From NCBI GenBank assembly GCA_038744895.1, contig JBCDLV010000001.1, forward strand, positions 1 to 51,443: a stretch of 51,443 nucleotides of DNA, written 5' to 3'. The notes beneath the pieces were generated by a model. That model searched no databases and was not told the origin of the DNA. It worked only from the letters and a program-made list of their open reading frames with translations. This document shows, in pieces, positions 1 through 32,022 of the stretch (the stretch's first letter is position 1; every line of letters starts with the position of its first letter). The position numbers were made by a program, and so were the translations under genes. The stretch is from Bacteroidota bacterium (GTDB lineage Bacteria > Bacteroidota > Rhodothermia > Rhodothermales > Rubricoccaceae).

Positions 1-217
1 TCCGGTTGTCTCCGGGAGGCCGCCCTCGAACAGGCGCTCCACGAACGTCGGCGCCTCGCCCGCGAGCCCGGCCAACTCGTGCTGCGAGAGCGGGTGGAGC
101 CGGAGCACCTCCATCCGACCGGCGAGCGAGTCGGAGAGGTGGGGTACGAGGAGGACGTTGGCCGACCCCGTGAGCAGGAATCGCCCCGGGGTCCGGTCGC
201 GGTCGACGGCCGACTTC
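1..217 (-). pseudogene. Internal fragment of an AAA_14/DUF4143-type ATP-binding protein (5'-truncated, runs off the window edge)
   Basis: Manual minus-strand translation gives KSAVDRDRTPGRFLLTGSANVLLVPHLSDSLAGRMEVLRLHPLSQHEL, the typical 'GRFLLTGS...ESLAGR' segment of this family. No Walker A/B lies upstream in this frame; it abuts a T9SS remnant. Not in the ORF track. Confidence 0.75.
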
Positions 218-580
218 GCCTGGTCCGGGCCGGTCCAGCACACGCGCGGGTCGGTCAACCGGAACCAGACGTTCGCCGCACCCGGTGCCCGCGAGGCCGT
301 CGCCACCGAGGCGGCGCCGGTCGGGCTCGACTTATCCGTCTACCCGAACCCGGTGCGGGACCGGGCCACGGTCGCCGTCGACCTCCCCGAAGTGGCAGGC
401 GTCCGGGCCGAGGTGTTCGACGCGCTCGGGCGGCGCGTGGCCACCGTCGAGGCGGGCCGCCTCGGGGCCGGGTTCCAGTCGGTGCCGCTCGACCTGGGCG
501 CTGTGCCGGCGGGCCTCTACATCGTCCGCGTGACGGTGGGCGGTGAGGTCGCCACGCAGACGATTACGGTCGTCCGGTAG
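212..580 (+). pseudogene. 3' remnant of a T9SS type A sorting (Por C-terminal) domain protein
   Basis: LSVYPNPVRDRATVAVDLP...VFDALGRRVATV...VPAGLYIVRV...TQTITVVR* is a canonical T9SS CTD. There is no signal peptide, and upstream of ~212 the frame is the antisense of the ATPase fragment. Confidence 0.75.
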
Positions 581-1194: not shown

Positions 1195-3504
1195 ATGGCG
1201 GACTACGACTTCCGGACGCTCTCGCCGATCGACTTCGAGCACCTCGTCCGGGACCTTCTCGCGGCGGAGTGGGACGCCCCCGTCGAGTCCTTCGCGCCCG
1301 GGCCGGACGGCGGCATCGACCTCCGCCACACCGACGCCGAGGGCGCCGTCACGATCGTCCAGTGCAAGCACTACGCGGGGTCCCGATTCGACCGGCTGCT
1401 CAGGGACGTCCGCGCGGAGGCCCCGAAGGTCGAGATCCTGGACCCCGACCGCTATGTCCTCGTAACGTCCAAAGACCTCACGCCTCCCAACAAGAAGGCG
1501 CTCGGAGACGCTCTCGGCCGCGAGGCGACGATCCTAGGCCGGGGCGACCTCAACGGCCTCCTCGTGCGGTACCCCGAGGTGGAGCGCCGCACGGTCAAGC
1601 TCTGGCTCGCGTCGAGCGCCGTGCTCGACCGTATCGTCCACTCCGACATCCTCGTCCGCTCTCAGACCACGGCCGACGCCCTCCGAAACACTCTCAGGCT
1701 CTACGTCCAGGGCCGATCCCATGCCAAGGCGCAGGCCATCCTCCGCGACCTCCACTACTGCGTCATCGCAGGCGCTCCGGGGATCGGGAAGACGACCCTC
1801 GCTCAGGTCCTTGTCGCTGACCACGTGGCCCGCGGGTACGAGCTGGTCCACGTCCGAGGGCACGTCGCGGAGGCCCTCCGTGTCCTCCGGCCCGAGCGCA
1901 GGCAAGTCGTCTACTACGACGACTTCCTCGGCCAGACCGCTCTCCGCTCCAAGCTGGAGAAGAACGAGGACGCCGACCTCTTGGATCTCATCGAGGCCGT
2001 CCGCCGCAGCGACTACACCCGGTTCCTCCTCACGACCCGCGAGTACATCCTCAACCAGGCGAAGCGCGACTTCGAGCGGCTCGCCACCTCGGAGTTCGAC
2101 TGGCGACGGTGCACCGTCGACCTCGCTAGCTACTCCCGCCTCCACCGCGCCGAGATCCTCTACAACCACCTCTACTTCGCCGACCTCCCCCAGGCGTACC
2201 GCGACGCCCTCCTCGCCGACCGCTCGTACCTCCGCATCATCGACCACCCCGGCTACAACCCCCGCATCATCAGCTGGATGACGACGCACCTCCGGACCGC
2301 GCGCGTCCCCGCCGAGGCCTACCCAGAGGAGTTCGTCGGGACGCTCGACGACCCCGACCGCCTCTGGCGGCATGCCTTCGAGCGCCAGATCTCGGACGCG
2401 GCCCGGTCCCTCCTCTGGACGCTGGTCACCCTCCCAGACCGCACGGACCTCGACGTCGCGAGCGCGGCCTTCGGCGCGCTCCACAAGGCCCGGGTCGGGC
2501 CGCAACCCTCCGGTCTCCTCTCGGCGTTCGACGACGCCCTCCGCGAGGTCGAGGGCACCTTCGCGCTCTCGACCCAGGGAGACGGCCGGCGCCCCGTGGT
2601 CTCCCTCCAATCCCCCTCTGTGCGCGACTTCCTCGAGGCCCGCCTCCGGGAGGCGCCCCGCCTGGCGTCCGAGCTCGCGGCGGCGGCCGTGTCGTTCGAG
2701 CAGGTCTCCTACCTCCACTCAAACGGGCTCGCGCCGCCGGACGCGACCTGGCCCGCGCTCGCCCGAACGTTCGACGGCCCCGCCCCCACACAGGGCGTCA
2801 CGTCGTTCGGCCCCGAACTCCTCGGGAGCACGACGCGGACCGGCGGGGTCGACCGCCCGGACCGACTGCGCTACATGGTCCTCGCCGCGTGCGAGGTGGG
2901 GGAAGGGCGCCTCTCGTCGGATGCCGAGGCCGCCCTCGAAGCGGCAGTGACGACGCTTCTCGGCGTCTCCTCGCCGCGGTCGGACACCCTCCACGAGCTG
3001 GTCCAGGCCGTCGCGGCCCGCCCGGCCATCGACCGCGTGCACGGCGACGCCCTCCGAGCCTTCGCGCACGCCCGCCTCGGTGACGACATCGACGAGCTCT
3101 CGGACGTCGACCGCTACCTCGCGTTCTACGACGCGTTCATGTGCGCGCCGAAGTACACGGACGCCTACTGGGACGCCCAGGACGTCTTTGAGTCCGTGCG
3201 TGATCGGTTCATCGCTGAAGTCGGCCCTGGCGTCGAGTGGATCGGAGACCACGGCGAGGAGACGACCCCCGAGGAGATCGAGGCGTACGACGAGGTGCTC
3301 CAGGAGACCGCCGGCCGCCTCGACGTCCCGATCCCGGGGACATGGTCGGTCGCGCTGGACCGGGGCCTCGAAACCGCGAAGGAGGCCGAGGAGAAGGCCT
3401 GGCACGACGCCGACGAGTACGGGGGACGCAGCCCATCGCCCCGCGCGACCCGTCCCGTCGGGGACGCTGTCATCCACGCCATGTTCGCATCCCTGCGAGC
3501 CTAG
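1195..3504 (+). CDS. Mrr-like restriction endonuclease fused to an nSTAND3-type STAND NTPase (candidate antiphage sensor-effector)
   Basis: N-terminus LSPIDFEHLVRDLL...GPDGGIDL...IVQCKHY (Mrr/PD-(D/E)XK); Walker A GAPGIGKT; Walker B VVYYDDFLG; FLLTTREYIL; YNPRII; acidic helical C-terminus. Confidence 0.85.
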   Translation: MADYDFRTLSPIDFEHLVRDLLAAEWDAPVESFAPGPDGGIDLRHTDAEGAVTIVQCKHYAGSRFDRLLRDVRAEAPKVEILDPDRYVLVTSKDLTPPNKKALGDALGREATILGRGDLNGLLVRYPEVERRTVKLWLASSAVLDRIVHSDILVRSQTTADALRNTLRLYVQGRSHAKAQAILRDLHYCVIAGAPGIGKTTLAQVLVADHVARGYELVHVRGHVAEALRVLRPERRQVVYYDDFLGQTALRSKLEKNEDADLLDLIEAVRRSDYTRFLLTTREYILNQAKRDFERLATSEFDWRRCTVDLASYSRLHRAEILYNHLYFADLPQAYRDALLADRSYLRIIDHPGYNPRIISWMTTHLRTARVPAEAYPEEFVGTLDDPDRLWRHAFERQISDAARSLLWTLVTLPDRTDLDVASAAFGALHKARVGPQPSGLLSAFDDALREVEGTFALSTQGDGRRPVVSLQSPSVRDFLEARLREAPRLASELAAAAVSFEQVSYLHSNGLAPPDATWPALARTFDGPAPTQGVTSFGPELLGSTTRTGGVDRPDRLRYMVLAACEVGEGRLSSDAEAALEAAVTTLLGVSSPRSDTLHELVQAVAARPAIDRVHGDALRAFAHARLGDDIDELSDVDRYLAFYDAFMCAPKYTDAYWDAQDVFESVRDRFIAEVGPGVEWIGDHGEETTPEEIEAYDEVLQETAGRLDVPIPGTWSVALDRGLETAKEAEEKAWHDADEYGGRSPSPRATRPVGDAVIHAMFASLRA

Positions 3505-3528
3505 CGCTCGCAGCGCGGCGGCCTGCAC

Positions 3529-5733
3529 TTAGTCCGCCTCGTCCGCGGTAGCCGCGTGGTCCGTCATCCGCTCTCGCTCGGCTGGGGCCAGGGCCGGAGA
3601 GGTTCGCGCCCTCTCATGGAGCGATGCCAGGCGGGACCGGGACACCTGGACCGGGACGCCGGCGAGGGCGGCGCAGTAGTACGTGTCCAGCGCCGCCGCA
3701 GGCAGCGCCTCCACCGCCTCGTCGAGGGAGCCGTACCGGGACGTCAGGAAGCCCTCGAAGTCCGCCACCGCCTCGGTGAGCGCGTCCGGCCCCGCGCCGC
3801 CAGGCGCGTCACACAAGACGTACTCGAAGTACACGGCCGAGTTCAGCAGCCACAGACGGAGCGGGTCCTCGGCGCGCAGGAGCCCCTTGGCCTTGTCGAG
3901 CTGGCTCCGGGCGTCGTTCTCGAACTTGTCCGTGGAGGGGCCGCCTGGCGAACGGCTCCGGATCGCGATCTCCGCCCGCGTCACTCGGTTGGCGGCCATC
4001 TCCACGGCGAGCCGGGCGTCGTCCTCGCGACCGGCATCGCGCAGGTTCGCCACGATCCTCGCTGCCCGGTCCAGCAGCCCCGGCTTGTACGTCTTCCGCT
4101 CGGCCACCGCAGACAGCAGGCTGGCCTCGGGGATGCGCGGGAGCGACGACTCCTCCGAGGCGGCGAAGGCGTGGTCGCAGTACGTACGGGCATTCGACCA
4201 TTGGCCACACGTCGCACACGCGAAGGCCGCCGCCAGGAACCGCTCGTACGCATCGTCTCCGGCTCCCGTCCCGTCGGCGTCGAGCGATTCCGTCAACGCA
4301 CGGATGCGGTCACTCACGTCCGACCACCGGACCGTCGAGCTCCCGCGGACGAACTCGTAGAGGTCTCGGCCCGGTCCCGCCCGCTCAAAGCGGAGCTCGT
4401 AGGGCACGCCCTGGTCCGTCCTCACCTCCTGATCGGAATCGAACAGCTGCTCCGTGCTCTCCGTCAGCAGGGACCCGCTGATCGCCAGCACGTCCACCCG
4501 CGTGCTCCACACCGACAGATCCACCGCCCGCTCGTGCCGCGAGAGGAAGCCGACCAGCTGCGACCGCAGCTCGCGGATCTCTCCCTTCTCGGGGGGCACC
4601 GCTCCCTGAGAGGCCTCGGCCTCCTTCGCCGCACTGTACTCCTCCCGGACCACGCTCATGGCGAAGTAGTCCGTCCACCGACTCCGCAGCTTGTCCGCCC
4701 GATCCTCGAGCCACCACTCCCGGACCCCCAGCGCACGCAGCGGCTCGTCGTGCGCGCGCGCGTCCTGGCCCGTGAGCGACCCGTAGGTCTGGCGGATCGA
4801 CTCGACGGTCTTCGCGAACTGCTTGAGGTCGTCCATGTGGCCCTTCCGGAGCGCCGCCGTCGCCATCGCGAACGCCCGGACGTGCACGACGGGGGGATGC
4901 GGGTGCTTCTTCGACTTGTGCAGCTTCCGCTCCGCCACGTCGACCATCGTCGTGCTCCGGGTGATCAGCGTCGCCGATGCGTACTTCGGCTTCAGCCGGA
5001 CCCGGTGGAGCAACTCGAGCGCGGCGCCGTCGCGCTGGGCGTTCCCCAGCCTGGCCCCACTCGAATCACGCTTGAGCAGGCGGAGGCGGTGGATCTCCTT
5101 CCCCAGCGCCCGCCGGAAGTCGACATCTGGCTGGCTGAGGTCGTCGGGGTCCACCCGGCTATGGAACGCCGCGACTCTAGAGTCGCGGAGCAACGAGCGC
5201 AGCCGCATCCAGGTCTCACGGTCCCACCCCGGGCGGAGCGCCCAAAGCACGTGGCTCGCCACCGGCTCCAGCTCTTCCCGCAACGACGACCAGCCGCCCT
5301 CCCGGCCTGCGGCCTCGAGCAACTCGTCGACCGCGCTCTCGGTCTCTTTGACACGCTGGGCGATCTCCTCCTGCTCACGCTTCCGTTCCACCCGGACGGT
5401 CGCCCCCATCACATGGTGGAGGTACCCCGTAAACTCCAGTTGGTGAGGCGGGAGGAGGGCCGGCTCGTAGTCGAACAGCTGGGCGAGGGTCCCGTACTGA
5501 GAGGCCCGCTCGATGTCGCCCGCCGCGTCGCCGAGCGCGTTGAAGTGCGCCGCGTCGGAATCGTCGAGCTCGATGAACGCCCGAACTTCGGAGAAGTCCA
5601 CGAAGAGGACGCTGGGCGGCCCGCTCTTCATGGCGCGTTTCGCGTACGCCCGTGCGTGGGCCACGTCGCGGCTCAACGAGTGGATGCTCGTCAGGAACCG
5701 TTGCTCGTCGATGGGCAGGGAGGAGGGGCTCAT
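3529..5733 (-). CDS. Hypothetical protein (734 aa), PIN-like N-terminal domain and helical/TPR-like C-terminus
   Basis: ATG at 5733 overlaps the upstream stop (ATGA). Motifs VLFVDFSEV, LLPPHQLEF, NAQRDGAALELL and ATLITRS resemble the PIN acidic pattern; Ala/Leu-rich helical C-terminal third. Confidence 0.7.
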   Translation of the reverse strand: MSPSSLPIDEQRFLTSIHSLSRDVAHARAYAKRAMKSGPPSVLFVDFSEVRAFIELDDSDAAHFNALGDAAGDIERASQYGTLAQLFDYEPALLPPHQLEFTGYLHHVMGATVRVERKREQEEIAQRVKETESAVDELLEAAGREGGWSSLREELEPVASHVLWALRPGWDRETWMRLRSLLRDSRVAAFHSRVDPDDLSQPDVDFRRALGKEIHRLRLLKRDSSGARLGNAQRDGAALELLHRVRLKPKYASATLITRSTTMVDVAERKLHKSKKHPHPPVVHVRAFAMATAALRKGHMDDLKQFAKTVESIRQTYGSLTGQDARAHDEPLRALGVREWWLEDRADKLRSRWTDYFAMSVVREEYSAAKEAEASQGAVPPEKGEIRELRSQLVGFLSRHERAVDLSVWSTRVDVLAISGSLLTESTEQLFDSDQEVRTDQGVPYELRFERAGPGRDLYEFVRGSSTVRWSDVSDRIRALTESLDADGTGAGDDAYERFLAAAFACATCGQWSNARTYCDHAFAASEESSLPRIPEASLLSAVAERKTYKPGLLDRAARIVANLRDAGREDDARLAVEMAANRVTRAEIAIRSRSPGGPSTDKFENDARSQLDKAKGLLRAEDPLRLWLLNSAVYFEYVLCDAPGGAGPDALTEAVADFEGFLTSRYGSLDEAVEALPAAALDTYYCAALAGVPVQVSRSRLASLHERARTSPALAPAERERMTDHAATADEAD

Positions 5734-6710
5734 GGCTCGGGGGCGCCGTCGTCCGGCGCAGAGTCCGTCCACCCCGGAGCCCCGGGGGGCGGCTCGTCGG
5801 GGAACACGAACGCCGTCATCGACTCCTCCAGGGTGGCCCCCACGCTCTCCGCGTTGACGGTCTCTGCCCGGTCCGCGGGGAGGCGGGCCGGGTACGACCG
5901 GTTCTCGCTGCTGATCCGGCTCTCGAGGAACCGCGTGAGCAGGAAGGTCTCGCCCGTGGCGTCGCCGCTGTACGGGAGGAGGCTGAAGACGCGCGTCGGA
6001 CCTTGGAAGAGGATCGCGTACACCGCCTCCCACAGGTCGTCATCGAGGCCCGCAAGGGACTCCGCCAGGACGGCCTCGCCCACGGCGACGGCCCACTCGT
6101 CGAAGTACGCCGGGCGGTGGGGCACCGCCCCACGCCGCACGTCGTGGAACAGTCGGGCCGACCAGAACGGCCACCACGTGGGCCTCGCACGGCACAGGAT
6201 GCGTGTCGTGAGGTAGGGGAAGCGCTCGTACGTCAGGTCGGCGTCGTACAGCCGAAGCGCGAGGCTCGGGGTCGGGTGGGTCCTGACCAGCGGCGCGATG
6301 GAGTCGAGGATCTCGCCGATCGAGGGGACGTGGAGCGCTCGCCGACGGAGGGGAGAGCATAACGTGACCACCGAGTCGACCAGGGGCCGGAGGGCCTCGA
6401 CGCAGTGGACCTCGGCGGCCACGTACGCCAGTCGCTCTAGCCCGCGCTCCACGCCGGGGCGCTCCAGCGTCTCCGAGGCGATCGCGAGGCTCAACGCCCG
6501 CTCGAACCTGAACTGCCCCTCGACGCTCAGGTCCGGGTGCTCGTACGCCGCCCGGTACGCCTCGGCCGCCCCGTGCCACGCCGGCGTCCACCGACCGTCG
6601 ACCGAGATCGGGCTGAACACGTCCTCGAACGCGAACCGTTTGAGGAACACGAGCAGCTCGTCCGGGCTCGACGCCTCCAGGATCTCGTGGTTTCGAATCG
6701 GGAGTGCCAT
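5730..6710 (-). CDS. Hypothetical, predominantly alpha-helical protein (326 aa)
   Basis: ATG at 6710 (MALPIRNHEIL...), 4 bp after the upstream stop; coding-like codon bias; no catalytic motif recognised. Confidence 0.75.
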   Translation of the reverse strand: MALPIRNHEILEASSPDELLVFLKRFAFEDVFSPISVDGRWTPAWHGAAEAYRAAYEHPDLSVEGQFRFERALSLAIASETLERPGVERGLERLAYVAAEVHCVEALRPLVDSVVTLCSPLRRRALHVPSIGEILDSIAPLVRTHPTPSLALRLYDADLTYERFPYLTTRILCRARPTWWPFWSARLFHDVRRGAVPHRPAYFDEWAVAVGEAVLAESLAGLDDDLWEAVYAILFQGPTRVFSLLPYSGDATGETFLLTRFLESRISSENRSYPARLPADRAETVNAESVGATLEESMTAFVFPDEPPPGAPGWTDSAPDDGAPEP

Positions 6711-6714
6711 GGGA

Positions 6715-7617
6715 TCAGGGGGCGAGGAGGGCGACCACCCGGTCGGTGTGGTGGGTCGTCCAGGTCGACCGGTAGGCACGCGGGAAGTCGCCGTCCAGCC
6801 GGAGCAGGTTCTCATGGAGGATGCCGATCGGCCGCCACCGGAACCGCTCCGTGAACGGGATCGGGGCGTGTACGAACTCCACCCCGCCGTGGGTGCACGT
6901 CGGGACGTGGAGCGCGTGGGTGCACTCCTCGTCGCCCTCCACGCACAGGCACCCCGCCAGCCCCCCGTCCAGGCTCGTCGGCTGGTGCGTGTCCCCTTCG
7001 TCTACCTCCCCGGCCGGGTACTCGATCGCGATCGCCATCCACCCAGGCTGAAAATGAGCCAGTCCCAGACGGCCGCACACCGCCCGCGCGCTCGACGAGG
7101 CCGCGGCGACCTCCCCCTTGTGCGTCGCGAACACCACCGGCCGCGGCGCCGTCAGCTCCGCCTCCTCACGGAGGTCGCCCGCCGCGACGCGCCCCCCCGT
7201 CCGCAGGTAGCGCCGGGCGATCAGATCGGTCAGGTCGTGCCGGTCGCGTCCCCGCCCCTTCCCGGCACTGAACCGGATGAGGTGCTTGTTGACGTCGTCC
7301 CCCGACGAGACGCGGGCGACGCCGTCGGAGAGGGGGTGGGGGTGACCCAGGCGCGCGAAGTGGAACGGGTCCGAGGCGTCGTTGTCCACCTGCTCCAGCG
7401 CCTTGTCGAAGGCCTCGGCCGCCCATGCCGGGTGCGGGTCGTCCCGGGTCAACCATACCCGCACGGCCTCGCCGAACGCCCGTTCCAGCACCTCGTCCGT
7501 CGGGCGCGTGAACCGGTCGTGGTCCACGTCGAACGCGAGGTCGTTCAGACGTCGAGGCCCCCCCTCGCTCAGGAGGAAGAGCTCGAGGTACTCGGAAACG
7601 ACGTCGGGTGGATACAC
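6715..7617 (-). CDS. Hypothetical protein (300 aa), possible divergent ADP-ribosyltransferase/NADase-like fold
   Basis: Probable GTG start at 7617 (MYPPDVVSEYLELF...). Motif string ARVS...VVFAT...RLGLAHF...IEYP...PTSLDGG...GGVEFVHAPIP. The fold assignment is inference. Confidence 0.65.
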   Translation of the reverse strand: MYPPDVVSEYLELFLLSEGGPRRLNDLAFDVDHDRFTRPTDEVLERAFGEAVRVWLTRDDPHPAWAAEAFDKALEQVDNDASDPFHFARLGHPHPLSDGVARVSSGDDVNKHLIRFSAGKGRGRDRHDLTDLIARRYLRTGGRVAAGDLREEAELTAPRPVVFATHKGEVAAASSSARAVCGRLGLAHFQPGWMAIAIEYPAGEVDEGDTHQPTSLDGGLAGCLCVEGDEECTHALHVPTCTHGGVEFVHAPIPFTERFRWRPIGILHENLLRLDGDFPRAYRSTWTTHHTDRVVALLAP

Positions 7618-7948
7618 GACGGGAGTGCAGGTCGCGGGGTGCAAGGGTACGACTCCGAAGGGATACAAGCACGCGGCAACGTCTGTCTTTTTCTGAGCAA
7701 CGCAATCCCTGGCGCCTCGGCTGGCGGCACGACGCGTCAGGACAGCGCCCACCGGGGGGGAGACGGCCCACGACAACCAACACCTCGTGCTCCTGGCCGC
7801 AAGGCCGTCGGGCCGCGTCGCGGCCCTCGCACGCGCCCGCCGAGGCGGGCGGCCTGGCCCCCGGTCCGCGCGGCGTGGGCGTCGCAAGCGTGCGCCGTCG
7901 GCGCTCCCCCGGCTCGGCCGGTGGCCCCGTTCCCTTCCGCGTCTCGCC

Positions 7949-8176
7949 ATGCTCCACCCGTTCCTCTCCGGCCCCGTCGTCCAGCGTCTCCTCACCGTTT
8001 CCGGTCCTCTCGCGCTCTACACGCCTCTCGCCGGTCTCCTCGCGTGGGGCTCCGTCTCGCTCGGTCGGCACTCCCCGGGCGGGGTCGTCTGCGGCTTGTT
8101 GGCGGTGCTCGTCGGCGTCATCGTCGCCCACGAGATTCGCTACCTCGTCACGGGTCGCTGGCCTCGGCGCCCATGA
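7949..8176 (+). CDS. Small membrane protein (75 aa, two hydrophobic segments)
   Basis: MLHPFLSGPVVQRLLTVSGPLALYTPLAGLLAWG...GVVCGLLAVLVGVIVAHEIRYLV; ATG follows a pyrimidine-rich spacer. Confidence 0.55.
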   Translation: MLHPFLSGPVVQRLLTVSGPLALYTPLAGLLAWGSVSLGRHSPGGVVCGLLAVLVGVIVAHEIRYLVTGRWPRRP

Positions 8177-8573
8177 TGGCCGTTCGGGGCTGTTCGCGTT
8201 TCCCGATAAGCGTGTCCGCAGCAGGCCGCTCGCCGCGACGCCAACCCGTGGGAAGCAGGGCATCCTGGCCGAATCAGGTCCGGGCATGAGGTCACGCCGA
8301 CGATGGGCCACGACACGGCCGGGTGAGCCGAGCACGCGTTGTCCCGCGACTCGGACAGCGGCCAACGGTGGCGTGCGGCGGCACCCGGGATCGGGGCGAT
8401 AAGACACTCGGGCACGGCTCGGGTCTCGCAAGGGACGCCGGGCCTGCGCGCGTGTCCGCGCGCGGACGGCACGGCTCCGTCCTCGCCATGCTCCGGCCGT
8501 CGGCTCCGCCTCGGCCCTGCGCGTGGCTCCGGGCGGCCCGTGCGCTTCCCCTGCGCCGCGCCTCGGAGGTCGG

Positions 8574-8627
8574 CGTCGCCCCCGCTCCGGGGCGCCTCCG
8601 TCGCCCCCGCTCCGGGGCGCCTCCGTC
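8574..8627. repeat. Tandem direct repeat, 2 x 25 bp plus 4 bp
   Basis: CGTCGCCCCCGCTCCGGGGCGCCTC at 8574-8598 and 8599-8623, followed by CGTC. Confidence 0.9.
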
Positions 8628-8645
8628 TCCACCCGCCTCGCCCGC

Positions 8646-9200
8646 ATGCCCGTCCACGCTGTCGCCCCGTCTCCTGCCGTCTCCGCCGTCGCTCGGCTCC
8701 TCCGTTCCGCCCCCGTCGTCGGCGTCTCCGGCAGCCGCGCCCCCGGCGGGGGCTGCGTTCGGGCCGTCACCTGGGCCGTCGGCCAGCTCGCTCCCGGGGT
8801 CTCCGTCGTCACCGGCTGCGCGTCGGGCATCGATCGGGTGGCCCGCGGGCTCGTCCCCTCGGCGTTCGTGCTCCGGGCATGCCGCTACGGGCGGGGTCGC
8901 GGCAGCTTCGCGCGGCGGTCCACCGCCGTCGTCCGGCGCGTGGCCGCGTCGGGGCCGGGCGCGTTGTGGATCTCGGCTCCGGGGCGGGCCTGTCCCCACG
9001 GCCTCTTGCCCTCGGCCTCCTCGTCGGCCTGCTTCGCGGGCTTCGGCTCGGGGTCGTGGGCGTCGCTCGCGCTGGCGCTCGGGCTCGGGCTCGGCGTGCG
9101 CACCCTCGTGTGGCTCCCGTCGGGCATTGCGCCTCCGGCGGGGTGGGGGCTCTCGCCCCTCTGTGCCGGGCAGTCTGGGGCCTGGTGGTCGTCCTTGTGA
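8646..9200 (+). CDS. SLOG/DprA-like Rossmannoid protein (184 aa)
   Basis: VVGVSGSR...VVTGCASGIDRVAR...FARRS...GSGSWASLALA matches the SLOG/DprA GSR, G.A.G.D and SG(S/T) motifs. Confidence 0.7.
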   Translation: MPVHAVAPSPAVSAVARLLRSAPVVGVSGSRAPGGGCVRAVTWAVGQLAPGVSVVTGCASGIDRVARGLVPSAFVLRACRYGRGRGSFARRSTAVVRRVAASGPGALWISAPGRACPHGLLPSASSSACFAGFGSGSWASLALALGLGLGVRTLVWLPSGIAPPAGWGLSPLCAGQSGAWWSSL

Positions 9201-9279
9201 GCACACACTCCTCCCTCAAAGGCAGCGGTCTGTGGACAGGGCGGCCTCTGGCGACGCCCTCCCACACACCTCTGCCTCC

Positions 9280-10278
9280 ATGCGTGCCTCCTCGATGCCG
9301 TCGACCACCTCCAGCGTGTCGCTTGCCCGGGCCGTCGAGCGGGCCGTCGCCGCGGGGGCAGCCATCTCGTCCGCGGACCTCTTCGCGCTCGCTGCCGACG
9401 GCTTCGGCGGCACCCTCGCCGAGGGCGCCTTCTCGCCGCGCGACGCCCACGACGCCGCCGAGCTCGGCCTCCACCTCCACCTGCTCGGCCTCGGGGTGCC
9501 GCTCGGGGACGACCCCGTGGGCGCGCTCGCCGAGGTCGAGTGGCTCTCGTCGCTCCTGCCCAGCCAGACGCGCCGGACGACCGAGCAGAACGACTACCAG
9601 CAGTTCTCGACGCCCGCCGCCTACGCGGCCCTCTGCGCCTGGATCGGTGGGGTAGGAGAGGGGCACCGGGTCTTGGAGCCCTCGGCCGGGACCAGCGCGC
9701 TCTGCACGTTCGCCCTCATCGCCGGCGCCACGGTTCACGCCAACGAACTGTGCCCACGCCGGGCCGACCTCCTCGCGGTGCTCCTCGCCGAGGCCGGTCA
9801 GGACCCCGAGGGGACCCCCCGCGGCACCCTCACGCGCGAGAACGCCAACCACCTCGACGCCATCCTGCCCCCCGAGCTGCGCGCCGACGTCGTGCTCATG
9901 AATCCGCCGTTCTCGCAGACCGCCGGACGGCTCGGCCACCGCCGCGTCCCCACCGTCGGAACCGACCACGTGCTCCAGGCGCTCCGCCGTCTCGATTCTG
10001 GTGGCCGACTCGTCGCCGTCCTCAGCGCGGGCGTCCACCGGAGCAAGCCCACGTACCGGCCCTTCTTCGAGGCCCTCGACGCCGCCCCCCTCCGTCTCCG
10101 GGCCGACATCGAGCTCTCGGGGGCCGTGTACCGCCCCTACGGGACCTCCGTCCACACGCGGCTCCTCGTCGTGGACAACCACGGCGCTGGGGGTAACACA
10201 GCGCGCGTGGACGGTGCAGTGGAGACCGCGGAGAGCGCCCTCGACCTCCTCTCCGTGTGTCGGCGCGAACGGTCTTGA
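9280..10278 (+). CDS. N6-adenine DNA methyltransferase of the type found N-terminal to strawberry-notch helicases
   Basis: SQTRRTTEQNDYQQFSTP; motif I VLEPSAGT; motif IV VVLMNPPFS; GGRLVAVL. Start is ATG 9280 or 9295. Confidence 0.85.
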   Translation: MRASSMPSTTSSVSLARAVERAVAAGAAISSADLFALAADGFGGTLAEGAFSPRDAHDAAELGLHLHLLGLGVPLGDDPVGALAEVEWLSSLLPSQTRRTTEQNDYQQFSTPAAYAALCAWIGGVGEGHRVLEPSAGTSALCTFALIAGATVHANELCPRRADLLAVLLAEAGQDPEGTPRGTLTRENANHLDAILPPELRADVVLMNPPFSQTAGRLGHRRVPTVGTDHVLQALRRLDSGGRLVAVLSAGVHRSKPTYRPFFEALDAAPLRLRADIELSGAVYRPYGTSVHTRLLVVDNHGAGGNTARVDGAVETAESALDLLSVCRRERS

Positions 10279-10333
10279 GCCGCGGTCTCTCGCACCGCAA
10301 ACGGTTCGCGACGCGACAGGTCCGCTGCGCCTC

Positions 10334-10810
10334 CTACCCGTCCGGGGGGCGAGGCGTCGCCAGCCCGGCCAGTCGCGCCCGCACTCGCTGCACCAGCGCC
10401 CCGGGTCCCACCACCTCGACCGCCGGGTCCCCCGGCCGGTAGTCCCGCGCGTTGAACGTCACCAGCAGCGGGCACCCCGCCTCGATCGCGGCCACTAGGA
10501 GCGGGAGGTCCTTCGCGTCGGCTTTCCCGTCGTGCGCGTCGACTCGGGCAGGGGAGGGGGCCTCCACGACCTCCACGTCTGCCGCGGCCACCAGCCGCCG
10601 GAACACGCCCACCGCCGCGGGGACCTTCGCCTCCAGGTTCCGCTCGCACTCCCGGACTGCCTGGCGGCTCGTGACCGCCTCGATCACCGTCGCCTCGGCC
10701 AGCCGGAGCACGACCTGGCTCGCGCTCTGGGCGTTCGCCGTCGCGGCCCCCGCGAACAGCACGTCGGCGTCGAGGAACACGCGGAGCCGACCGCCTGACG
10801 CCTCACCCAT
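10334..10810 (-). CDS. PIN-domain (VapC-like) toxin
   Basis: LRVFLDADVLFAG...AVRECERNL...DAKDLPLLVAA...LLVTFNARDY; overlaps the upstream AbrB-type gene. Confidence 0.85.
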   Translation of the reverse strand: MGEASGGRLRVFLDADVLFAGAATANAQSASQVVLRLAEATVIEAVTSRQAVRECERNLEAKVPAAVGVFRRLVAAADVEVVEAPSPARVDAHDGKADAKDLPLLVAAIEAGCPLLVTFNARDYRPGDPAVEVVGPGALVQRVRARLAGLATPRPPDG

Positions 10811-11144
10811 CCGCCTCGCCCGACCGCTCCTGCGCCGACCGCTCCCGCTCGGCGCGTAGGCTCTCCAGCAGTTCTTCGGTCGTGTACCCGGCCTCCACGC
10901 GGAGCCGCTCGATTTCGGCCGCCAGCTCGGGTACCACGGCCCCCTTCGGGCTCAGCACGAACACCCCGTCGAGGTCGAGGAAGCTCATCGCGTCGCCGGC
11001 CCCAAGCCCATACCGATCGCGGACGGCCTTCGGGATGGTCACCACGCCCCGCTCGCGGAGCTGGACCGTCGGCGCGAACGCCCGGCCCGCCCGCGCCCGG
11101 CGGCGCGAGGCGATTCCGGCCCGCTTGGTGTTGGAGGTCGCCAT
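10803..11144 (-). CDS. AbrB/MazE/SpoVT-family antitoxin
   Basis: VQLRERGVVTIPKAVRDRYGLGAGDAMSF is the swapped-hairpin signature; ATG at 11144. Confidence 0.85.
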   Translation of the reverse strand: MATSNTKRAGIASRRRARAGRAFAPTVQLRERGVVTIPKAVRDRYGLGAGDAMSFLDLDGVFVLSPKGAVVPELAAEIERLRVEAGYTTEELLESLRAERERSAQERSGEADG

Positions 11145-11150
11145 CGGATA

Positions 11151-11174
11151 ATGCAGAAATTCTGCATCAGTATA
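11151..11174 (-). promoter_or_regulatory. TA operon operator palindrome and -10 box
   Basis: Perfect inverted repeat ATGCAGAA-A-TTCTGCAT (11151-11167), 6 bp upstream of the antitoxin ATG; minus-strand TATACT at 11174-11169. Confidence 0.65.
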
Positions 11175-11190
11175 CAAATAGACGTCCGGT

Positions 11191-11301
11191 GGTCGTCTTG
11201 CCGCACTGGCGCGGCCCGTGGACGAGGACGACCGGGGTGTCGGCGAGGGCCTCCTCGGGGAGGGGCCGGACGAGGCGGCGGTAGTGGGGAGGCTCGGCTA
11301 T
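11191..11301 (-). pseudogene. N-terminal fragment of an AAA_14/DUF4143-type ATPase
   Basis: (ATA)AEPPHYRRLVRPLPEEALADTPVVLVHGPRQCGKTT. Walker A is present, the start appears as ATA, and family-like sequence ends immediately after GKTT. Confidence 0.7.
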
Positions 11302-11321
11302 GTGGAGAAAGAAGGGCCGGG

Positions 11322-11354
11322 GCGAATCGAAAAGTCGGAGTGTGCGAATCGAAA
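11322..11354. repeat. Direct repeat GCGAATCGAAA x2 with 22-bp periodicity (putative operator)
   Basis: Copies at 11322-11332 and 11344-11354, directly upstream of the ATPase fragment. Confidence 0.6.
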
Positions 11355-11515
11355 GGTTAGAGGCTGCGATCTGGGAGAGTCGAGGCGTAGGAGAGGCCGA
11401 GAGCGACCGCGGCCCGTCGCGATGCCGGGCCGGTGGACGAGCCCGCCACCGCGGCGGGCCGGAGCCCGCTGGGAAGGTCCGGGGGCTCCGCACCTCCAGG
11501 CCAACCGGAATCCCC

Positions 11516-14500
11516 GTGGCTCCCTCCGCTCACCCCGCCGCCTCTGGCGCGGCATCGCCCGAGGTCGAACAGCTCGACCTCTTCGCCCTCCTCACGTCGC
11601 CGCCGCCGGCGACTCCCCGCGTCGCCACCCTCGGCGCTCATCTGCCTCGCACCCGGCCGACGGTGACCCCAGGGCCGTCGTCTCGATCCGCCTGGCCGTT
11701 CGCAGACGCTCGGCCGCTGGCGGTCGAGGCCGCCGGGGAGGTCGAGACCTCTGGCGCGCTCACGGCGAGCGTGTTCGACGCCTACCGCCCGAGCGTCCGC
11801 GTGCCGGGCTCGTGCCCTCATCCGACGACGCTTGTCGAGTCGGCCGCGATGGCGGCGGCCACCGCTCCGTCCTGCGACTACCGCCCGACGCTCCCCGAGC
11901 ACCTCGTGACGGAGGGCCATCTCTCCGACGCCCAGCTCGAGACCATCGTCCGCGCCGGGGCTGCCCATTCGGAGCACCTTCCGGGAACCGGCGACGAGGC
12001 CGGACCGCGCCAGGGGTACTTCATCGGCGACGCGACCGGAGTGGGGAAGGGGCGCACGAGTGCGGGTCTCCTCCTCGACAACGTCCTTCAGGGCCGCCGC
12101 CGGGCGCTCTGGGTGAGTGAGAACCGGAGCCTCCTCCGCGACGCCGTCCGCGATTGGACCGCGCTCGGCGGCCCGGCCGAGTTCGTCTTCGACCTCGGCG
12201 CGTGCAAGGGACCCATCATGCGGGCCGAGGGCGTCTGCTTCGCGAGCTACGACACGCTCAAGGGCAAGCAGCGGGAGAAAGACGGCGTGGAGACCGGGAT
12301 CGACCGTCTGGAGCAGGTCGTCGCCTGGCTAGCGGCCGGTGGCGACGATTCCGAGTTCGACGGCGTGATCGTCTTCGACGAGAGCCACAACATGGCCTCC
12401 GCTCTCGACCGCCAGGGCAGCCGGGGCGCGCAGAGGGCGTCTCAGCGAGCACTGGTAGGGGTCGAGCTTCAGGCCCGCCTTCCCGACGCTCGCGTCGTCT
12501 ACGCCAGCGCGACGGGCGCCACCGAGGTCGCGAACCTCGCCTACGCCGCTCGGCTCGGCCTCTGGGGCCGGGGCACCCCGTTCCCCACCGTCGAGGCGTT
12601 CGTCGAGAAGGTCTCAGCAGGAGGCATCGCCGCGATGGAGCTCGTAGCGAAGGACCTCAAGGCGATGGGGCTCTACCTCGCACGCAGCGTGTCCTACGAC
12701 GGCGTCGACTACCGGACGCTCGTCCACGAGCTGGAGCCGCACCAGGCGGCGACCTACGACCGGTGCGCCGAGGCGTGGCAGGTCGTGCTCCGCAACCTCC
12801 AGGCGGCCCTCGAAGTGACGAAGGCGGACAAGTGCGGGAGGGCCAGGGCCGCGGCCTACAGCCAGTTCTGGGGGGCGCACCAGCGGTTCTTTCTGCACCT
12901 GCTGGTCGCGATGTCGGCGCCGAGCCTCATCCGCGACATGGAGGACCGCCTCGGGGCCGGTGAGTCTTGTGTCGTGCAACTGGTCTCGACGATGGAGGCC
13001 GCCACCGAGCGCGCGTACGCGAAGGCCGTCGCGAACGGCGACGACCTCCGGGACCTCGATGTCACGCCTCGCGACCAGCTCCTGCAGTTCGTCGAAGCCT
13101 CGTTCCCGACGACGCTCTATGAGGAGTACAAAGACGACGACGGCCGCGTGCGGAGTCGCCCCGTGAAGAACGCCGCCGGCGACTTCGTGCAGTCGCCCGA
13201 GGCCGTCGCGGCCCGGGACCGTCTGATGTTGGAGGTGGGGGCGGTGAGCGTGCCGCACGGCGTGCTCGACCAGGTCGTCGCCCACTTCGGCCCCGACGCC
13301 GTGGCCGAGATCACGGGCCGCAGCCGCCGGTTCGTGACCAGGGCCGTCGACGGCATCGAACAGGTCGTGGAAGAGCGCCGGACGCGCCGCCGGTGCGACG
13401 CCGAGGCCGACGAGTTCATGGCGGGCAAGCGCCGGGTGCTCGTGTTCAGCCAGGCCGGCGGTACCGGCCGGAGCTACCACGCCGACCTCGCGGCCGAAAA
13501 CCAGGAGCGCCGGGTCCTCTACTGCGTCGAGCCCGGCTGGAGCAGCGCGCGGTGCGTCCAGGGGATGGGCCGGGTCCACCGGGCCAATCAGGCGTGCCCG
13601 CCCGAGCTCGTGCTCGTGACCACGAACCTCAAGGCCCAACGACGCTTCCTGTCCACCATCGCGCGGCGGCTCGACCAGCTCGGAGCCCTCACTAAGGGCC
13701 AGCGCCAGACCGCCAGCCAGGGCCTTCTCTCGTCCGAGTTCAACCTGGAGACCCCGCTCTCCCGCGCCAGCCTGCACAACTGGTTCGTCGACCTCTACCG
13801 GGCCAATGGGCGCGCAGCCGCCGCGGGCGTCACGCCGGCGCTCGTTGAGGAGCAGATGGGGATCCGCGTCCTGGACCAGAATGGCCAACTCAATGTCGGC
13901 GCGGTCCCTGAGGTCCCGAAGTTCCTCAACCGGCTCCTCTCGCTCCGCACGAGCGACATGGACGCCGTCTTCGACTCGTGGTACGGCTACCTCGAAGAGG
14001 CCACCGAGGCGGCGCGCGAGGCGGGCACGCTCGACGTGGGCGTCGAGACGATCCAGGCGGAGCGGACCGTCAAGACCGGCGAGCGACTCGTCTACACGCA
14101 CCCCCGCTCCGGTGCGACGACGCAGGTGGTGACGCTCGAGCTCACGCGCCGGACGGAGATCACGCCGTGGGAGGACATCTGGCTCCTCGCGAAGAAGGCG
14201 CAGCAACTCAGCCAGTGGGCGGGGTTCGTCGTCAACCGCCGGAGCGGGCAGCCCTACGCACTCTTTCGGGCGGGGAGCCGGACGACCGAGACCGGCCGCG
14301 TCGTGGCCCGCCTGCGGCGCATCGGCGTCCGCTCGAACCGCCTCATGGATGAGACGGACCTGAACCCGAGAGGAGGGGAGGAAGGCCACCAGCCCATCCC
14401 AACGGACGAGGCCAAGCGGCTCTGGACCGATGGCGTCGCTGCAGCCCCCGAGTTTTACACCGAGCCGGTCCACCTCGTCACGGGCACGATCCTCCCGATC

Positions 14501-14941
14501 TGGGACCGGATCGCCGGTCACCCGAGGATCTACCGCGCCCAGACCGACAGCGGAGAGCGCATGATCGGCCGCGCGGTCATGCCCGAGCACCTGGGTGCCA
14601 CGCTCAAGGCTCTGGGAGCCTCGGGCGACCGGGTCGAGATCACGCCCGAGGCGCTGGTGGAGCGCCTCCTGGTAGGCGCCGAGGCCGACCTCGCCAACGG
14701 CTGGCGGCTCCGGCGGCGGCGCGTCGCGAACGAGTGGCGGATCGAACTCGCAGGTCCCGATCTGGCCGCCCTCCGCGAGCTGGAGGCCGACGGCGTGTTC
14801 GCTGAGGTCCACAACTGGCAGACCCGGTTCTTCGTCCCGACCGGCGACCGGGCGGCGGGCGTCCTGCGGGCCGTGACGGAGCACCGTCCCGTCGTCGAGA
14901 TCCGAGGAGGCTCGGAGGACGGCTATCGCCGAGCTGCCTGA
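11516..14941 (+). CDS. Strawberry-notch family SF2 helicase-like protein (AAA_34 plus Helicase_C_4)
   Basis: HPTTLVESAAMA, LSDAQLET, GDATGVGKGR, VFDESH, YASATGA, AEITGR, AGGTGRSYHAD, QGMGRVHRANQ. Start uncertain: GTG 11516 preferred, frame open from 11300. Confidence 0.92.
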   Translation: MAPSAHPAASGAASPEVEQLDLFALLTSPPPATPRVATLGAHLPRTRPTVTPGPSSRSAWPFADARPLAVEAAGEVETSGALTASVFDAYRPSVRVPGSCPHPTTLVESAAMAAATAPSCDYRPTLPEHLVTEGHLSDAQLETIVRAGAAHSEHLPGTGDEAGPRQGYFIGDATGVGKGRTSAGLLLDNVLQGRRRALWVSENRSLLRDAVRDWTALGGPAEFVFDLGACKGPIMRAEGVCFASYDTLKGKQREKDGVETGIDRLEQVVAWLAAGGDDSEFDGVIVFDESHNMASALDRQGSRGAQRASQRALVGVELQARLPDARVVYASATGATEVANLAYAARLGLWGRGTPFPTVEAFVEKVSAGGIAAMELVAKDLKAMGLYLARSVSYDGVDYRTLVHELEPHQAATYDRCAEAWQVVLRNLQAALEVTKADKCGRARAAAYSQFWGAHQRFFLHLLVAMSAPSLIRDMEDRLGAGESCVVQLVSTMEAATERAYAKAVANGDDLRDLDVTPRDQLLQFVEASFPTTLYEEYKDDDGRVRSRPVKNAAGDFVQSPEAVAARDRLMLEVGAVSVPHGVLDQVVAHFGPDAVAEITGRSRRFVTRAVDGIEQVVEERRTRRRCDAEADEFMAGKRRVLVFSQAGGTGRSYHADLAAENQERRVLYCVEPGWSSARCVQGMGRVHRANQACPPELVLVTTNLKAQRRFLSTIARRLDQLGALTKGQRQTASQGLLSSEFNLETPLSRASLHNWFVDLYRANGRAAAAGVTPALVEEQMGIRVLDQNGQLNVGAVPEVPKFLNRLLSLRTSDMDAVFDSWYGYLEEATEAAREAGTLDVGVETIQAERTVKTGERLVYTHPRSGATTQVVTLELTRRTEITPWEDIWLLAKKAQQLSQWAGFVVNRRSGQPYALFRAGSRTTETGRVVARLRRIGVRSNRLMDETDLNPRGGEEGHQPIPTDEAKRLWTDGVAAAPEFYTEPVHLVTGTILPIWDRIAGHPRIYRAQTDSGERMIGRAVMPEHLGATLKALGASGDRVEITPEALVERLLVGAEADLANGWRLRRRRVANEWRIELAGPDLAALRELEADGVFAEVHNWQTRFFVPTGDRAAGVLRAVTEHRPVVEIRGGSEDGYRRAA

Positions 14942-23486: not shown

Positions 23487-25436
23487 TCAGGCCCTCTCTC
23501 GAAGCAGCATCTTGCCGTCCGTACTGCTGAGCGACAGCATGACGAACGGGTCAATCTCGGGGACAGTTCTACGGGTGGTCAGAATGAGTTGCCATGGCAT
23601 CTCCTCGGGATCGCCATCCGGGTCTTGTAGTCCGGCCACGTATCGGAGGAGTTGCGCGTAACTGACCTCGTTCAGATCGCCTACGGCTGGAGAGTCGATG
23701 ACGAGCGTCCTCGGCATATAGGCGGGAGCCTCACGTGCAAGGCCCCACATCGCCATGTAATAGCCGAAAGCGATCAAGCCCTTGTAGGCGAGCCCGAATG
23801 ACTCGTACGCCATCCCGTTCACGGTGGGCATGAGCGTCTGTCGGGAGATCCGGCACTGCTCGTAGGCAGGGAATTGCACACCCCGGAGGACATGATCGAG
23901 GTGCTGCTCCAAGAGATTGAGCCGCCCTTCCCGAATCGCCGACACAGCCCGACGTTCGGCATCGAGCGCCTGCATTACTTCGAAGAGCCGGTCTACGTCG
24001 TCCCGGCGGTCGCTCAAGCTGGCAGCCTCTGAGGCGAGGGCTTCCGCCTGAAGAAGTTCCTTCTCACGCTCTGCGATGGTCCGACTTACATCGATAAGAC
24101 GATCTACCGAGGGGGCCACGAATCCTTGGACCGCCCGGTCCAGCTCTGCCGCTAAATCAGTCTCGGCTCTGCGGATCGCGGCGAGGGTCGCCTCGCTCGT
24201 CGCGATCTCCTCCCCAACGGAGCGGAGAATCTCCCGAACCTCTTCGAGTTGGGCTTCGATATCCGCCACATTCGGGGCCTGTATCGGGACGTCGTCAGAT
24301 GTTGAGCCGAGCGGCCGGGCGCACAGTGCGCAGTGCCCATGATCCTCACGGGCCTCCATCTCGCTCGTGACCGGCTGGAGGCAACGGGGGCACGACGAGA
24401 ACGCGACAGTACTGAGGATGAGCGATGAGGAACGGAGACGCTCGATCCGACCGAGGTCTTGGATCAAGGAGTTTTCCAACTCCTGAAGCCGCTCTCGCTC
24501 TTCCGTCCGACCGGTTAGGTCCTCTTCGGCCGCCGCCCTCTCCTCTTTGAGGCGGAGCAGGTCCACACGTACACCCTCCACCTGACCCTGGATGTCCGCC
24601 GCTGCGTCAGACTCCCGCCGGATCGCCTCCCGCACGTCCCACTCGTCCGAGAGAGCGGCTTCCAGGGCCGCCTGGCGCTCGTCGACCCGGGCTTGGGCCT
24701 CCAGCGCCGTCGGTACCCCGCGGGAGGCGAGGTAGCGACTGATCGAGTCGAGGTCATTCCGGGCGTCGTAGTAGGCGCGCTGTGCCTGCGCGAGCTCGAC
24801 CTCGACGGCGTGCCGACGGTCGGGGATGATCCCCGTGAGAAACCCGACGATGTCGGTCTTCCGCCGCTCCGGGTCCACCCGCTGGAGGATCGCCCCGAAG
24901 CTGTACTCCTGGTGAAGGAGAAACACCCGTGAGAGCAACGGGAACGAAAGCGGGGTCAGGTCCCCCTCCCTCGTCTTGACGGACACGAGCGGGATGCCGA
25001 GCCTGGACAAGAGCCAGTCCGACAGCTCATCGACCGAAAGCGTGGATCCTCCTGTGAGGTGCGTTTCCGGATGGTACCGGCCGCGACGTACGAGAACGGC
25101 TGCTGAGGTCTGCTGGAGCGACCGCTCAATCACGTATGTCTCGTCACCGAGGTCGATTTCGAGAAACAGTGAGTCGAGCCGGTGAGCGACTTCTGCGAAG
25201 TGGAACTTCCGCTTGCTCTTGATGCGGCGGCCCAGTCCGTAGCGAATGAGTTCGACGAGGCCTGTCTTCCCGGCTCGGTTCGAGGCCGTGGGGTCGGACC
25301 CCTCCGATTCAGATTCCACCACATTCAGTCCGCGTGAGAACGACACGTCGCACCCGAGTTCGCCAGTCACGACGACGCGGCGGATGATGAGGTCGCGGGA
25401 CCCTACGAGTTGAGGCGGGGGGATGGGTTCACTCAT
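23487..25436 (-). CDS. lmuB: Lamassu/ABC-three-component SMC-like ATPase
   Basis: FSRGLNVV, Walker A SNRAGKT, Q-loop LLHQE, coiled coils with CPRC and CALC hook, Walker B LVIDSP, WQLILT. Confidence 0.85.
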   Translation of the reverse strand: MSEPIPPPQLVGSRDLIIRRVVVTGELGCDVSFSRGLNVVESESEGSDPTASNRAGKTGLVELIRYGLGRRIKSKRKFHFAEVAHRLDSLFLEIDLGDETYVIERSLQQTSAAVLVRRGRYHPETHLTGGSTLSVDELSDWLLSRLGIPLVSVKTREGDLTPLSFPLLSRVFLLHQEYSFGAILQRVDPERRKTDIVGFLTGIIPDRRHAVEVELAQAQRAYYDARNDLDSISRYLASRGVPTALEAQARVDERQAALEAALSDEWDVREAIRRESDAAADIQGQVEGVRVDLLRLKEERAAAEEDLTGRTEERERLQELENSLIQDLGRIERLRSSSLILSTVAFSSCPRCLQPVTSEMEAREDHGHCALCARPLGSTSDDVPIQAPNVADIEAQLEEVREILRSVGEEIATSEATLAAIRRAETDLAAELDRAVQGFVAPSVDRLIDVSRTIAEREKELLQAEALASEAASLSDRRDDVDRLFEVMQALDAERRAVSAIREGRLNLLEQHLDHVLRGVQFPAYEQCRISRQTLMPTVNGMAYESFGLAYKGLIAFGYYMAMWGLAREAPAYMPRTLVIDSPAVGDLNEVSYAQLLRYVAGLQDPDGDPEEMPWQLILTTRRTVPEIDPFVMLSLSSTDGKMLLRERA

Positions 25437-25996
25437 ATCGGCTCGTCATAGTCCCGGGCGACGACCTCCGGGAATCGTTCGTAGATGTACGCCTTCAGTC
25501 GGCTGCCGGTGAACGTTCCGAACACGCTCCGCACTGCGTCCGCCCGGTGCGCTATCCCGGCGTATGCGCCGTCGTCGGCGAGTTCAGAAGCCACTGCCCG
25601 ACCCTCCTCCGTCACGCGGAACACCTCGGTTCGGCCCTCGATGTCCACCTCGACGAGGCCCTTCCCGATCAGGTACGCGAGGACGACGTAGTAGGCATGG
25701 TCCCACGGACCGTATTTGTAGCGAACCATCGGGGCCTCCACCGTCGGAGCGGGATCGCTCAGCGCGTCGAGCGTCGCCGCCGCTGCTCGAGTCCTCGGCT
25801 CCGCCATCCGCGCGGCCCGTACCAGGTACGTCGGATACCGAAGAAAGAAATCGAGCTTTGCAAGGAGTGTACGCCCTTTGATGCCGGGCGGCTTCGCGCC
25901 AGACCTTGGCCTGCCACATCGGTCGATGAGTAGCAGCAGCCGCGCCGCGTGGTAAGCGACGCTTTCGGTGTCAAAAGCTGGGGTGCGCTTCGCCAT
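25433..25996 (-). CDS. lmuC: Lamassu/ABC-3C middle component (wHTH-like)
   Basis: HAARLLLLI...LAKLDFFLRYP...MVRYKYGPWD..YY; lies between nuclease and SMC with an ATGA overlap. Confidence 0.8.
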   Translation of the reverse strand: MAKRTPAFDTESVAYHAARLLLLIDRCGRPRSGAKPPGIKGRTLLAKLDFFLRYPTYLVRAARMAEPRTRAAAATLDALSDPAPTVEAPMVRYKYGPWDHAYYVVLAYLIGKGLVEVDIEGRTEVFRVTEEGRAVASELADDGAYAGIAHRADAVRSVFGTFTGSRLKAYIYERFPEVVARDYDEPI

Positions 25997-25999
25997 CCG

Positions 26000-31002: not shown

Positions 31003-31393
31003 GGGACAACAGGAGGACGGCGAGGACAGGCGCGCTCTAGCCCGGGACGAAGACGCTCCTCGTTCAGACGAACGACGCGCGGCCAAGCATACCGAACCCG
31101 GCGCGATCTCCGTGCGCAGGAATGGGCATCCCGTAAGCGCCGGCATTCGGGAGGGAATCTCTGGTGTGCTCCCACGTGCTCTCTGGGCGACACTCGCTCC
31201 CGTGACCCCACGAAGCGGTTCTTCGACGGTGATGGCGCGGACGCCCTCTCCGTCGGGAGCGTCGTCGATCCCTGTGTGACCTCCGCACTCACCTCATGCC
31301 ACCGGCGGATCGGGCGGCACGAGGGAAACCGAGGCGGTTCCCGAGATCGACTCCCGGCTCGCGCTCACCGTCAGCAAGTCCCGGGGGCTGAGG

Positions 31394-31879: not shown

Positions 31880-32022
31880 GAGGCAGAGGGTGGGGACCGT
31901 AGAATCGGCCATTCTGCACTCGGTTCAAGCGTTCGCGTGGTGGGGGACAGACCGATGACGCGCGGGTGGCATCCAACTGCCGTATTTCCTAGACCCTCCA
32001 TCGACGGCCTTTTTTCGTGCCG

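Follow-up and report, generated by a model that had tools for sequence, protein, structure and literature searches.

The 51,443-nucleotide stretch analyzed here (the window) spans positions 1 to 51,443 of contig JBCDLV010000001.1 (GenBank assembly GCA_038744895.1) from a member of the Rubricoccaceae (Bacteroidota), and positions 3,529 to 7,617 carry three adjacent minus-strand genes here called A, B, and C, together the triad (Table 1). An initial annotation, made from the letters alone, had described three intact open reading frames (ORFs) of 300, 326, and 734 amino acids (aa) in that order, and translations and coordinates agreed: gene A starts at a GTG codon, none of the three frames contains an internal stop, A and B are spaced by 4 bp, and B and C share a 4-bp ATGA overlap. 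GC content at codon positions 1/2/3 was 0.75/0.49/0.92 for A, 0.70/0.51/0.93 for B, and 0.70/0.49/0.90 for C, and was 0.73/0.47/0.92 for the adjoining STAND gene, whereas long shadow frames on the opposite strand reached a third-position GC of only 0.74 to 0.75, compared with 0.90 to 0.93 in the triad. The resemblance to real genes of the window, and not to shadow frames, supports A, B, and C as genuine ORFs. Upstream of the A start the frame stays open, giving 433 aa from stop to stop, and no clear ribosome-binding site for A was seen; with the 300-aa start, A matches the database protein P0005 and has the length of its homologues. Neither a sigma-70 promoter nor an intrinsic terminator was found at 3300 to 8600. 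The stop codon of C sits 24 bp from that of a gene with an nSTAND3 Pfam match, consistent with the earlier description of the operon as convergent on a STAND nuclease gene.

The initial annotation had named a lack of co-location among homologues as a finding that would refute its proposal. Scans with the A family returned one genome locus and eight metagenome loci, and genome searches added two. Outside the window, 10 loci have sequence downstream of A, and in each of them a same-strand ORF comes close behind, the B-like start at L006 being judged by eye only. Co-location was borne out, with gene order unchanged, in that A, B, and C lie on one contig not only in the window but also at L004, L005, L007, L009, and L017, where C of L005 is cut by the contig end and A of L017 by the contig start; the contigs of L006, L008, L010, and L018 stop within B or shortly after it. 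Intergenic gaps in the A-B-C loci range from −38 to +72 bp, and pairwise identities of each protein across loci are approximately 10 to 45%, most of them 10 to 35%. The identities of A and C covary (Spearman 0.80 over 15 non-independent pairs), as expected if the genes are inherited as a block, which is no proof of co-evolution. Coupling of the three genes across phyla at approximately 20% identity points to an obligate three-part machine. A more distant locus, L011:2083-4709 (+), encodes a divergent A (E 3e-14) followed by two coupled ORFs in B-like and C-like positions, the second of which, judged by eye, starts with a first strand closer to the canonical PIN type; the two ORFs scored 2.9 and 5.3 bits, with no significant match to the B or C profile, and L011 was kept as a divergent candidate only and not counted as a full triad.

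The triad is rare and patchily distributed. The search of the host's order turned up A in 3 of 285 genomes, and that of its genus in none of 20; C was detected in two of the three A carriers and in none of the order's other genomes (one spurious row was dropped). G044 carries A and the start of B, and C was not found there. In an Acidobacteriota sample (n = 401), true A and C profile matches occurred only in G451, the genome at the center of the sample and chosen as an A carrier. In G451, C is on a different contig from A, preceded by a tail with weak resemblance to B. Single-sequence searches with A found only A itself and none of 60 relatives (G044 was missed and later found by profile), and a two-sequence C profile found nothing in 400 genomes of the host phylum. 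No copies of the triad were found in viral contigs and plasmids, a search that did not cover the INPHARED phage collection. Three entries were discarded ahead of the counts: P0009 is a repeat protein; G476/L014 (E 5e-5) falls in a gene that we take to be GroEL-like; and G955/L034-L035 (E 4e-4) lies inside a presumably peptidase-like gene, and neither A nor B is close by.

None of the three proteins had a meaningful match in Pfam, NCBIfam, PADLOC, or PHROGs, and the same was true of their homologues in Pfam, PADLOC, and NCBIfam. Specifically, PADLOC-DB 2.0 matched 0 of 3 window proteins and 0 of 17 A-family rows, with nothing better than E 0.047 among 23 additional homologues of A, B, and C, and PHROGs matched 0 of 8 proteins. 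Thus, the genes were rightly called unannotated, and no existing defense model, which would have counted against novelty, was matched as far as PADLOC 2.0 goes. A full-text literature search found no operon combining an ADP-ribosyltransferase (ART), a helical protein, and a PIN/TPR protein, although supplement catalogues, such as that of PMC13069673 with its 39,848 candidate operons or the source data on domain architectures of PMC8195603, could list the triad. The triad is not described in the available passages of 10.64898/2026.10.19.760177, 10.1101/2025.01.08.631726, PMC8195603, PMC9503650, and PMC13069673. We conclude that A, B, and C constitute a real, conserved, and uncatalogued three-gene system.

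Structure prediction for A indicated a domain with the split beta-sheet of the ART fold. Strands were modeled at residues 100 to 105, 162 to 166, and 242 to 250, and the VIA rows of the fold match span residues ~91 to 270. R102, T165, and E247 fall on these three strands and are conserved together with LGLxH, YP, and PTxxDG motifs: in the A-family alignment R102 is present in 21 of 26 rows (3 have T and 2 have gaps), T165 in 25, and E247 in 24. In the R-S-E clade of the ART superfamily, as set out in the available passages of PMC9503650, Arg lies on strand 1, Ser/Thr on strand 2, and the catalytic Glu on strand 5. A resembles R-S-E enzymes (SPN of Streptococcus pyogenes, Tne2, Rhs1-CT, TreTu, and Scabin) in its modeled fold and in having its R, T, and E distributed over three strands in the clade order, an equivalence drawn from strand order and not from superposition. 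A differs in having no sequence-level match to them and in having an N-terminal helical bundle of its own, with no secretion or Rhs stalk detected; in place of a small immunity gene, two large partner genes come after A. Searches of PDB sequences and profiles with A gave nothing significant, Foldseek on both predicted models returned no match that reached E 0.001, and a Pfam-type match to DUF4774 was sub-threshold. The fold match of the model upholds the earlier reading of A as ART/NADase-like, and we conclude that A is predicted to have an ART/NADase fold with an R-T-E triad and to act on nicotinamide adenine dinucleotide (NAD+).

One homologue suggests that the A domain may be put to another use. 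P0024 (553 aa) carries an A-family domain, in which the putative catalytic Glu is replaced, C-terminal to an NB-ARC-like/winged-helix region. Sensors of STAND proteins sit C-terminal to the NTPase, according to the available part of 10.64898/2026.10.19.760177, and the A domain of P0024 is possibly an ART-derived sensor on a STAND protein.

The earlier description of B as helical is supported by prediction, its Atlas model resembling HEAT/ARM solenoids (TM 0.4 to 0.56). B is the quickest evolving of the three genes, and its family alignment has zero invariant columns, which fits a non-catalytic role. The window B is clearly homologous to that of L017 (27% identity, E 7e-14) but its tie to the rest of the B family is weak (hhalign E 0.004, probability 9%); in a leave-one-out test, 7 of 10 B rows passed (28 to 119 bits), and the window B, at 14.5 bits, did not exceed the background of 14.8. 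PDB sequence and profile searches with B gave nothing significant, and Atlas matches to DUF6138, DUF6339, and EH_Signature (0.84 to 0.87) fell below the 0.9 mark and were not used. Prediction of an A-B complex gave no answer (score 0.00) and was counted neither for nor against binding. We conclude that B is predicted to be a non-catalytic scaffold or inhibitor.

Gene C combines a TPR-type helical superhelix in its C-terminal part with a candidate nuclease region at its N terminus. All 7 of the 7 homologues compared, which share 16 to 45% identity, have the same residues at D46, E49, E100, R218, D235, and S260, and the strand and helix order of the N-terminal model fits a PIN domain with a helical insert. 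The active site of PIN-domain RNases has three or four acidic positions, ordered D (strand 1), E, D, and T/S-x-D; in C, the final one is T/S-R/H-S, placing Ser at the position expected for a fourth Asp. Pfam gave no PIN match in the window C or in the C-family rows, an hhalign comparison between 6 C rows and 7 PIN_8 sequences, with shallow alignments, returned E 0.33, and comparison of the N-terminal part with PDB profiles gave nothing under E 0.3. The fold search, run with the whole C model, was filled by its TPR half. Thus, of the earlier PIN-like/TPR-like reading, the C-terminal TPRs were supported by fold search, but the PIN fold was not confirmed and stays at the level of a motif, from which the N-terminal region is a PIN-like candidate. 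The best TPR matches are to peptide-sensing regulators (Rap, NprR, and MalT domain III), matches that are generic at such a size, and the superhelix is a candidate sensor or binding platform. Housekeeping-type folds, which the initial annotation had named as an argument against its own proposal, were looked for in the triad and not found.

Table 1. Coordinates of the triad, its predicted domains, and neighboring features in the window
Feature	Position	Strand	Basis
Gene A (300 aa)	7617-6715	(-)	Translation
Gene A, N-terminal helical bundle	residues ~1-85	(-)	Model
Gene A, predicted ART/NADase-fold domain	residues ~95-270; 6808..7335	(-)	Model strands and VIA rows
Gene B (326 aa)	6710-5730	(-)	Translation
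Gene B, predicted alpha-solenoid (HEAT-like)	5730..6710	(-)	Atlas model
Gene C (734 aa)	5733-3529	(-)	Translation
Gene C, PIN-like N-terminal part with long helical insert	residues ~40-290; 4864..5616	(-)	Motif and model
Gene C, middle part, helical, low-confidence model	between PIN-like and TPR parts	(-)	Model
Gene C, C-terminal TPR superhelix	residues ~445-734; 3532..4401	(-)	Fold search
Mrr-nSTAND3 gene, convergent, context only	1195..3504	(+)	Pfam nSTAND3 E 2e-47; PADLOC PDC-S73 E 4e-141
Lamassu-type three-gene operon, Cap4-nuclease effector	23487-27187	(-)	PADLOC LmuB E 5e-57, LmuC 2e-17, LmuA 2e-15
Two patatin-like phospholipase genes	29164-31146 and 37639-40923	(-)	Pfam-type match
DprA-like ORF, methyltransferase-like ORF, PIN/AbrB toxin-antitoxin pair, Strawberry-notch helicase	8523-14941		

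A role in defense is suggested by the conflict-type domains, the rarity and patchiness of the triad, its fast divergence, the STAND fusion, and defense-type neighbors in the window, at L009, and at L004. The defense-rich island claimed around the triad was found, in the form of the PDC-S73-type STAND gene and the Lamassu-type operon. Directly upstream of the L009 triad, on the same strand, lies an 882-aa open frame (L009:5162-7810, +) with TPR-S and MAP3K-TRAF-binding-like Pfam matches and a PADLOC TIR-effector match, and the neighbor at L004 matches PADLOC PDC-S01. These are the only 3 loci read that have a defense-type neighbor, and the remaining loci are short or lie amid ordinary genes, such that no enrichment near defense genes is established; this weighs against a defensive role, and the neighborhood does not establish the candidate defense system of the initial annotation. 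Taking the evidence together, we consider it probable that the triad is a defense system at all. The reading that we favor, at about even odds, is an abortive-infection module in which A would be an NAD+-using toxin held off by B and C until infection; the odds that A is the main toxic output are likewise about even.

If the triad is such a module, its role would be antiphage. B and C would keep A inactive until the TPR region of C detects infection, perhaps by binding a product of the phage or a host target that has been disturbed. The signal would then run via B and release A, and freed A would destroy NAD+ or ADP-ribosylate an essential target, halting the cell before the phage matures. The PIN-like domain of C could provide a second, RNA-cutting arm.

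The same genes could be wired differently, with A acting as the switch and C doing the killing: A would use NAD+ to make an ADP-ribose-derived signal or to mark C, or would only sense NAD+ or ADP-ribose, thereby switching the PIN-like RNase of C on or off, and B would be the adaptor. We regard this wiring as improbable, although it is the leading rival. The N-terminal acidic residues of C are invariant in all seven homologues while the Glu of A is lost in 2 of 26 rows, and the Glu-less A domain of P0024 lies C-terminal to the NTPase, the usual place of a STAND sensor in the available part of 10.64898/2026.10.19.760177. However, the PIN fold of C is unconfirmed, with Ser at the fourth acidic position, nucleotide-binding SLOG, Macro, and CARF domains were not detected in B or C, and the R-T-E triad is kept in most A members. 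The logic resembles that of Thoeris, in which, per the available passages of PMC9503650, an NAD+-derived signal from the enzyme of one gene activates the effector of a partner gene, but here the generator would be an ART and the effector an RNase, and no TIR, SLOG, Macro, or Sir2 domain was found in the triad. A more specific version, somewhat more doubtful still, is an immune circuit of a novel type, in which a new ART family would add or detect an ADP-ribose mark that controls the PIN-like RNase and in which its Glu-less versions, including the sensor end of the P0024 STAND protein, would serve as NAD+/ADP-ribose sensors or decoys. If true, an ART-gated PIN-like RNase would join NAD+ chemistry and RNA cleavage in one bacterial defense switch.

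Two readings that dispense with defense are less likely than this wiring. The triad could be a tripartite toxin-antitoxin (addiction) module that stabilizes a mobile region and has no antiphage role, B neutralizing A and C acting as a second toxin or regulator. Mobile-element genes in the window (integrase, DDE transposase, Strawberry-notch helicase, and the PIN/AbrB pair), translational coupling, and patchy distribution are consistent with addiction, but a DNA-binding autoregulator was not found in the triad, a 734-aa TPR protein would be costly for simple addiction, and several homologous loci lie amid ordinary chromosomal genes; we consider this unlikely. Slightly less likely again is a non-defense circuit for regulation or stress: A would ADP-ribosylate a host or partner protein, and the TPRs of C would read a peptide or metabolite in the manner of Rap or NprR. 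The identity of the best TPR matches and the presence of some regulatory neighbors (a SpoIIE-type phosphatase at L004 and a Crp-type regulator at L006) point that way, but the generic nature of those matches, together with rarity and rapid divergence that suit conflict systems better than housekeeping, argue against it. Finally, many long shadow ORFs overlap the region, yet the codon-position bias, the cross-phylum homologues, and the order kept on 6 contigs lead us to count as already refuted the notion that A, B, and C are chance neighbors or mis-called ORFs of high-GC DNA.

The toxin reading, in which A would be restrained by its partners, can be compared with described systems. DarTG consists of a DNA ADP-ribosyltransferase toxin and a Macro/NADAR antitoxin and is antiphage. 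The triad would share its way of working as an ART-toxin defense module, but no DarT, Macro, or NADAR profile matched A, B, or their homologues, and the triad has an alpha-solenoid B plus a third, 734-aa PIN-like/TPR gene. CmdTAC is tripartite, with an mRNA ADP-ribosyltransferase, an antitoxin, and a SecB-like chaperone, and offers the closest working model for the toxin reading, namely three coupled genes with an ART effector restrained until infection. However, no SecB-type Pfam or NCBIfam match was found in the B or C families, and the third gene of the triad instead encodes a large PIN-like/TPR protein. TPR-GreA/B-C-PIN systems (PF20698) combine TPRs and a divergent PIN domain with variable NAD+-targeting effectors, as described in the available part of Kaur et al. 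2021 (PMC8195603), and an Atlas feature search returned their clusters as weak look-alikes of C (0.75 to 0.76), which we treat as a lead only. They are mostly single genes with a C-terminal PIN and GreA/B-C, whereas in the triad the PIN-like part is N-terminal, the TPRs are C-terminal, and the NAD-acting ART-fold enzyme has a gene of its own; moreover, PF20698 matched neither the window proteins nor 7 C-family rows. We conclude that the triad is not a member of DarTG, CmdTAC, Thoeris, or the TPR-GreA/B-C-PIN systems.

If the triad is defensive, a new ART family would join the few immune effectors that ADP-ribosylate targets or deplete NAD, and an NAD-acting enzyme would be paired with a PIN-like/TPR protein in an architecture that we did not find in print. 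Because the operon is 4.1 kb and has candidate catalytic residues in two genes, single loss-of-function mutants could separate effector from switch.

The Mrr-nSTAND3 gene was considered as a fourth component and rejected, as it is absent beside the triad in the other loci read. On the far side of the triad, the gene set between the DprA-like ORF and the helicase appears typical of mobile-element cargo, and the window also has a Por-secretion tail gene, which hints at a host of Bacteroidota type. Two pieces of an AAA_14-type ATPase gene lie at 1-339 (-) and 11170-11529 (-), matching model positions 81 to 128 (E 3e-8) and 2 to 20 (E 0.004), respectively. They flank 10.8 kb that contains the STAND gene, the triad, the DprA-like and methyltransferase-like ORFs, and the PIN/AbrB pair. 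Model positions 21 to 80 were not found, nor was an intact copy elsewhere in the assembly, and the 10.8 kb may have been inserted into the AAA_14-type gene, splitting it. Elsewhere in the window, at 31996-35018 (+), a 676-aa helical-repeat-like ORF without a Pfam match is followed by what by eye is a restriction-endonuclease-type start, also without a Pfam match, and is possibly part of another unannotated defense gene pair.

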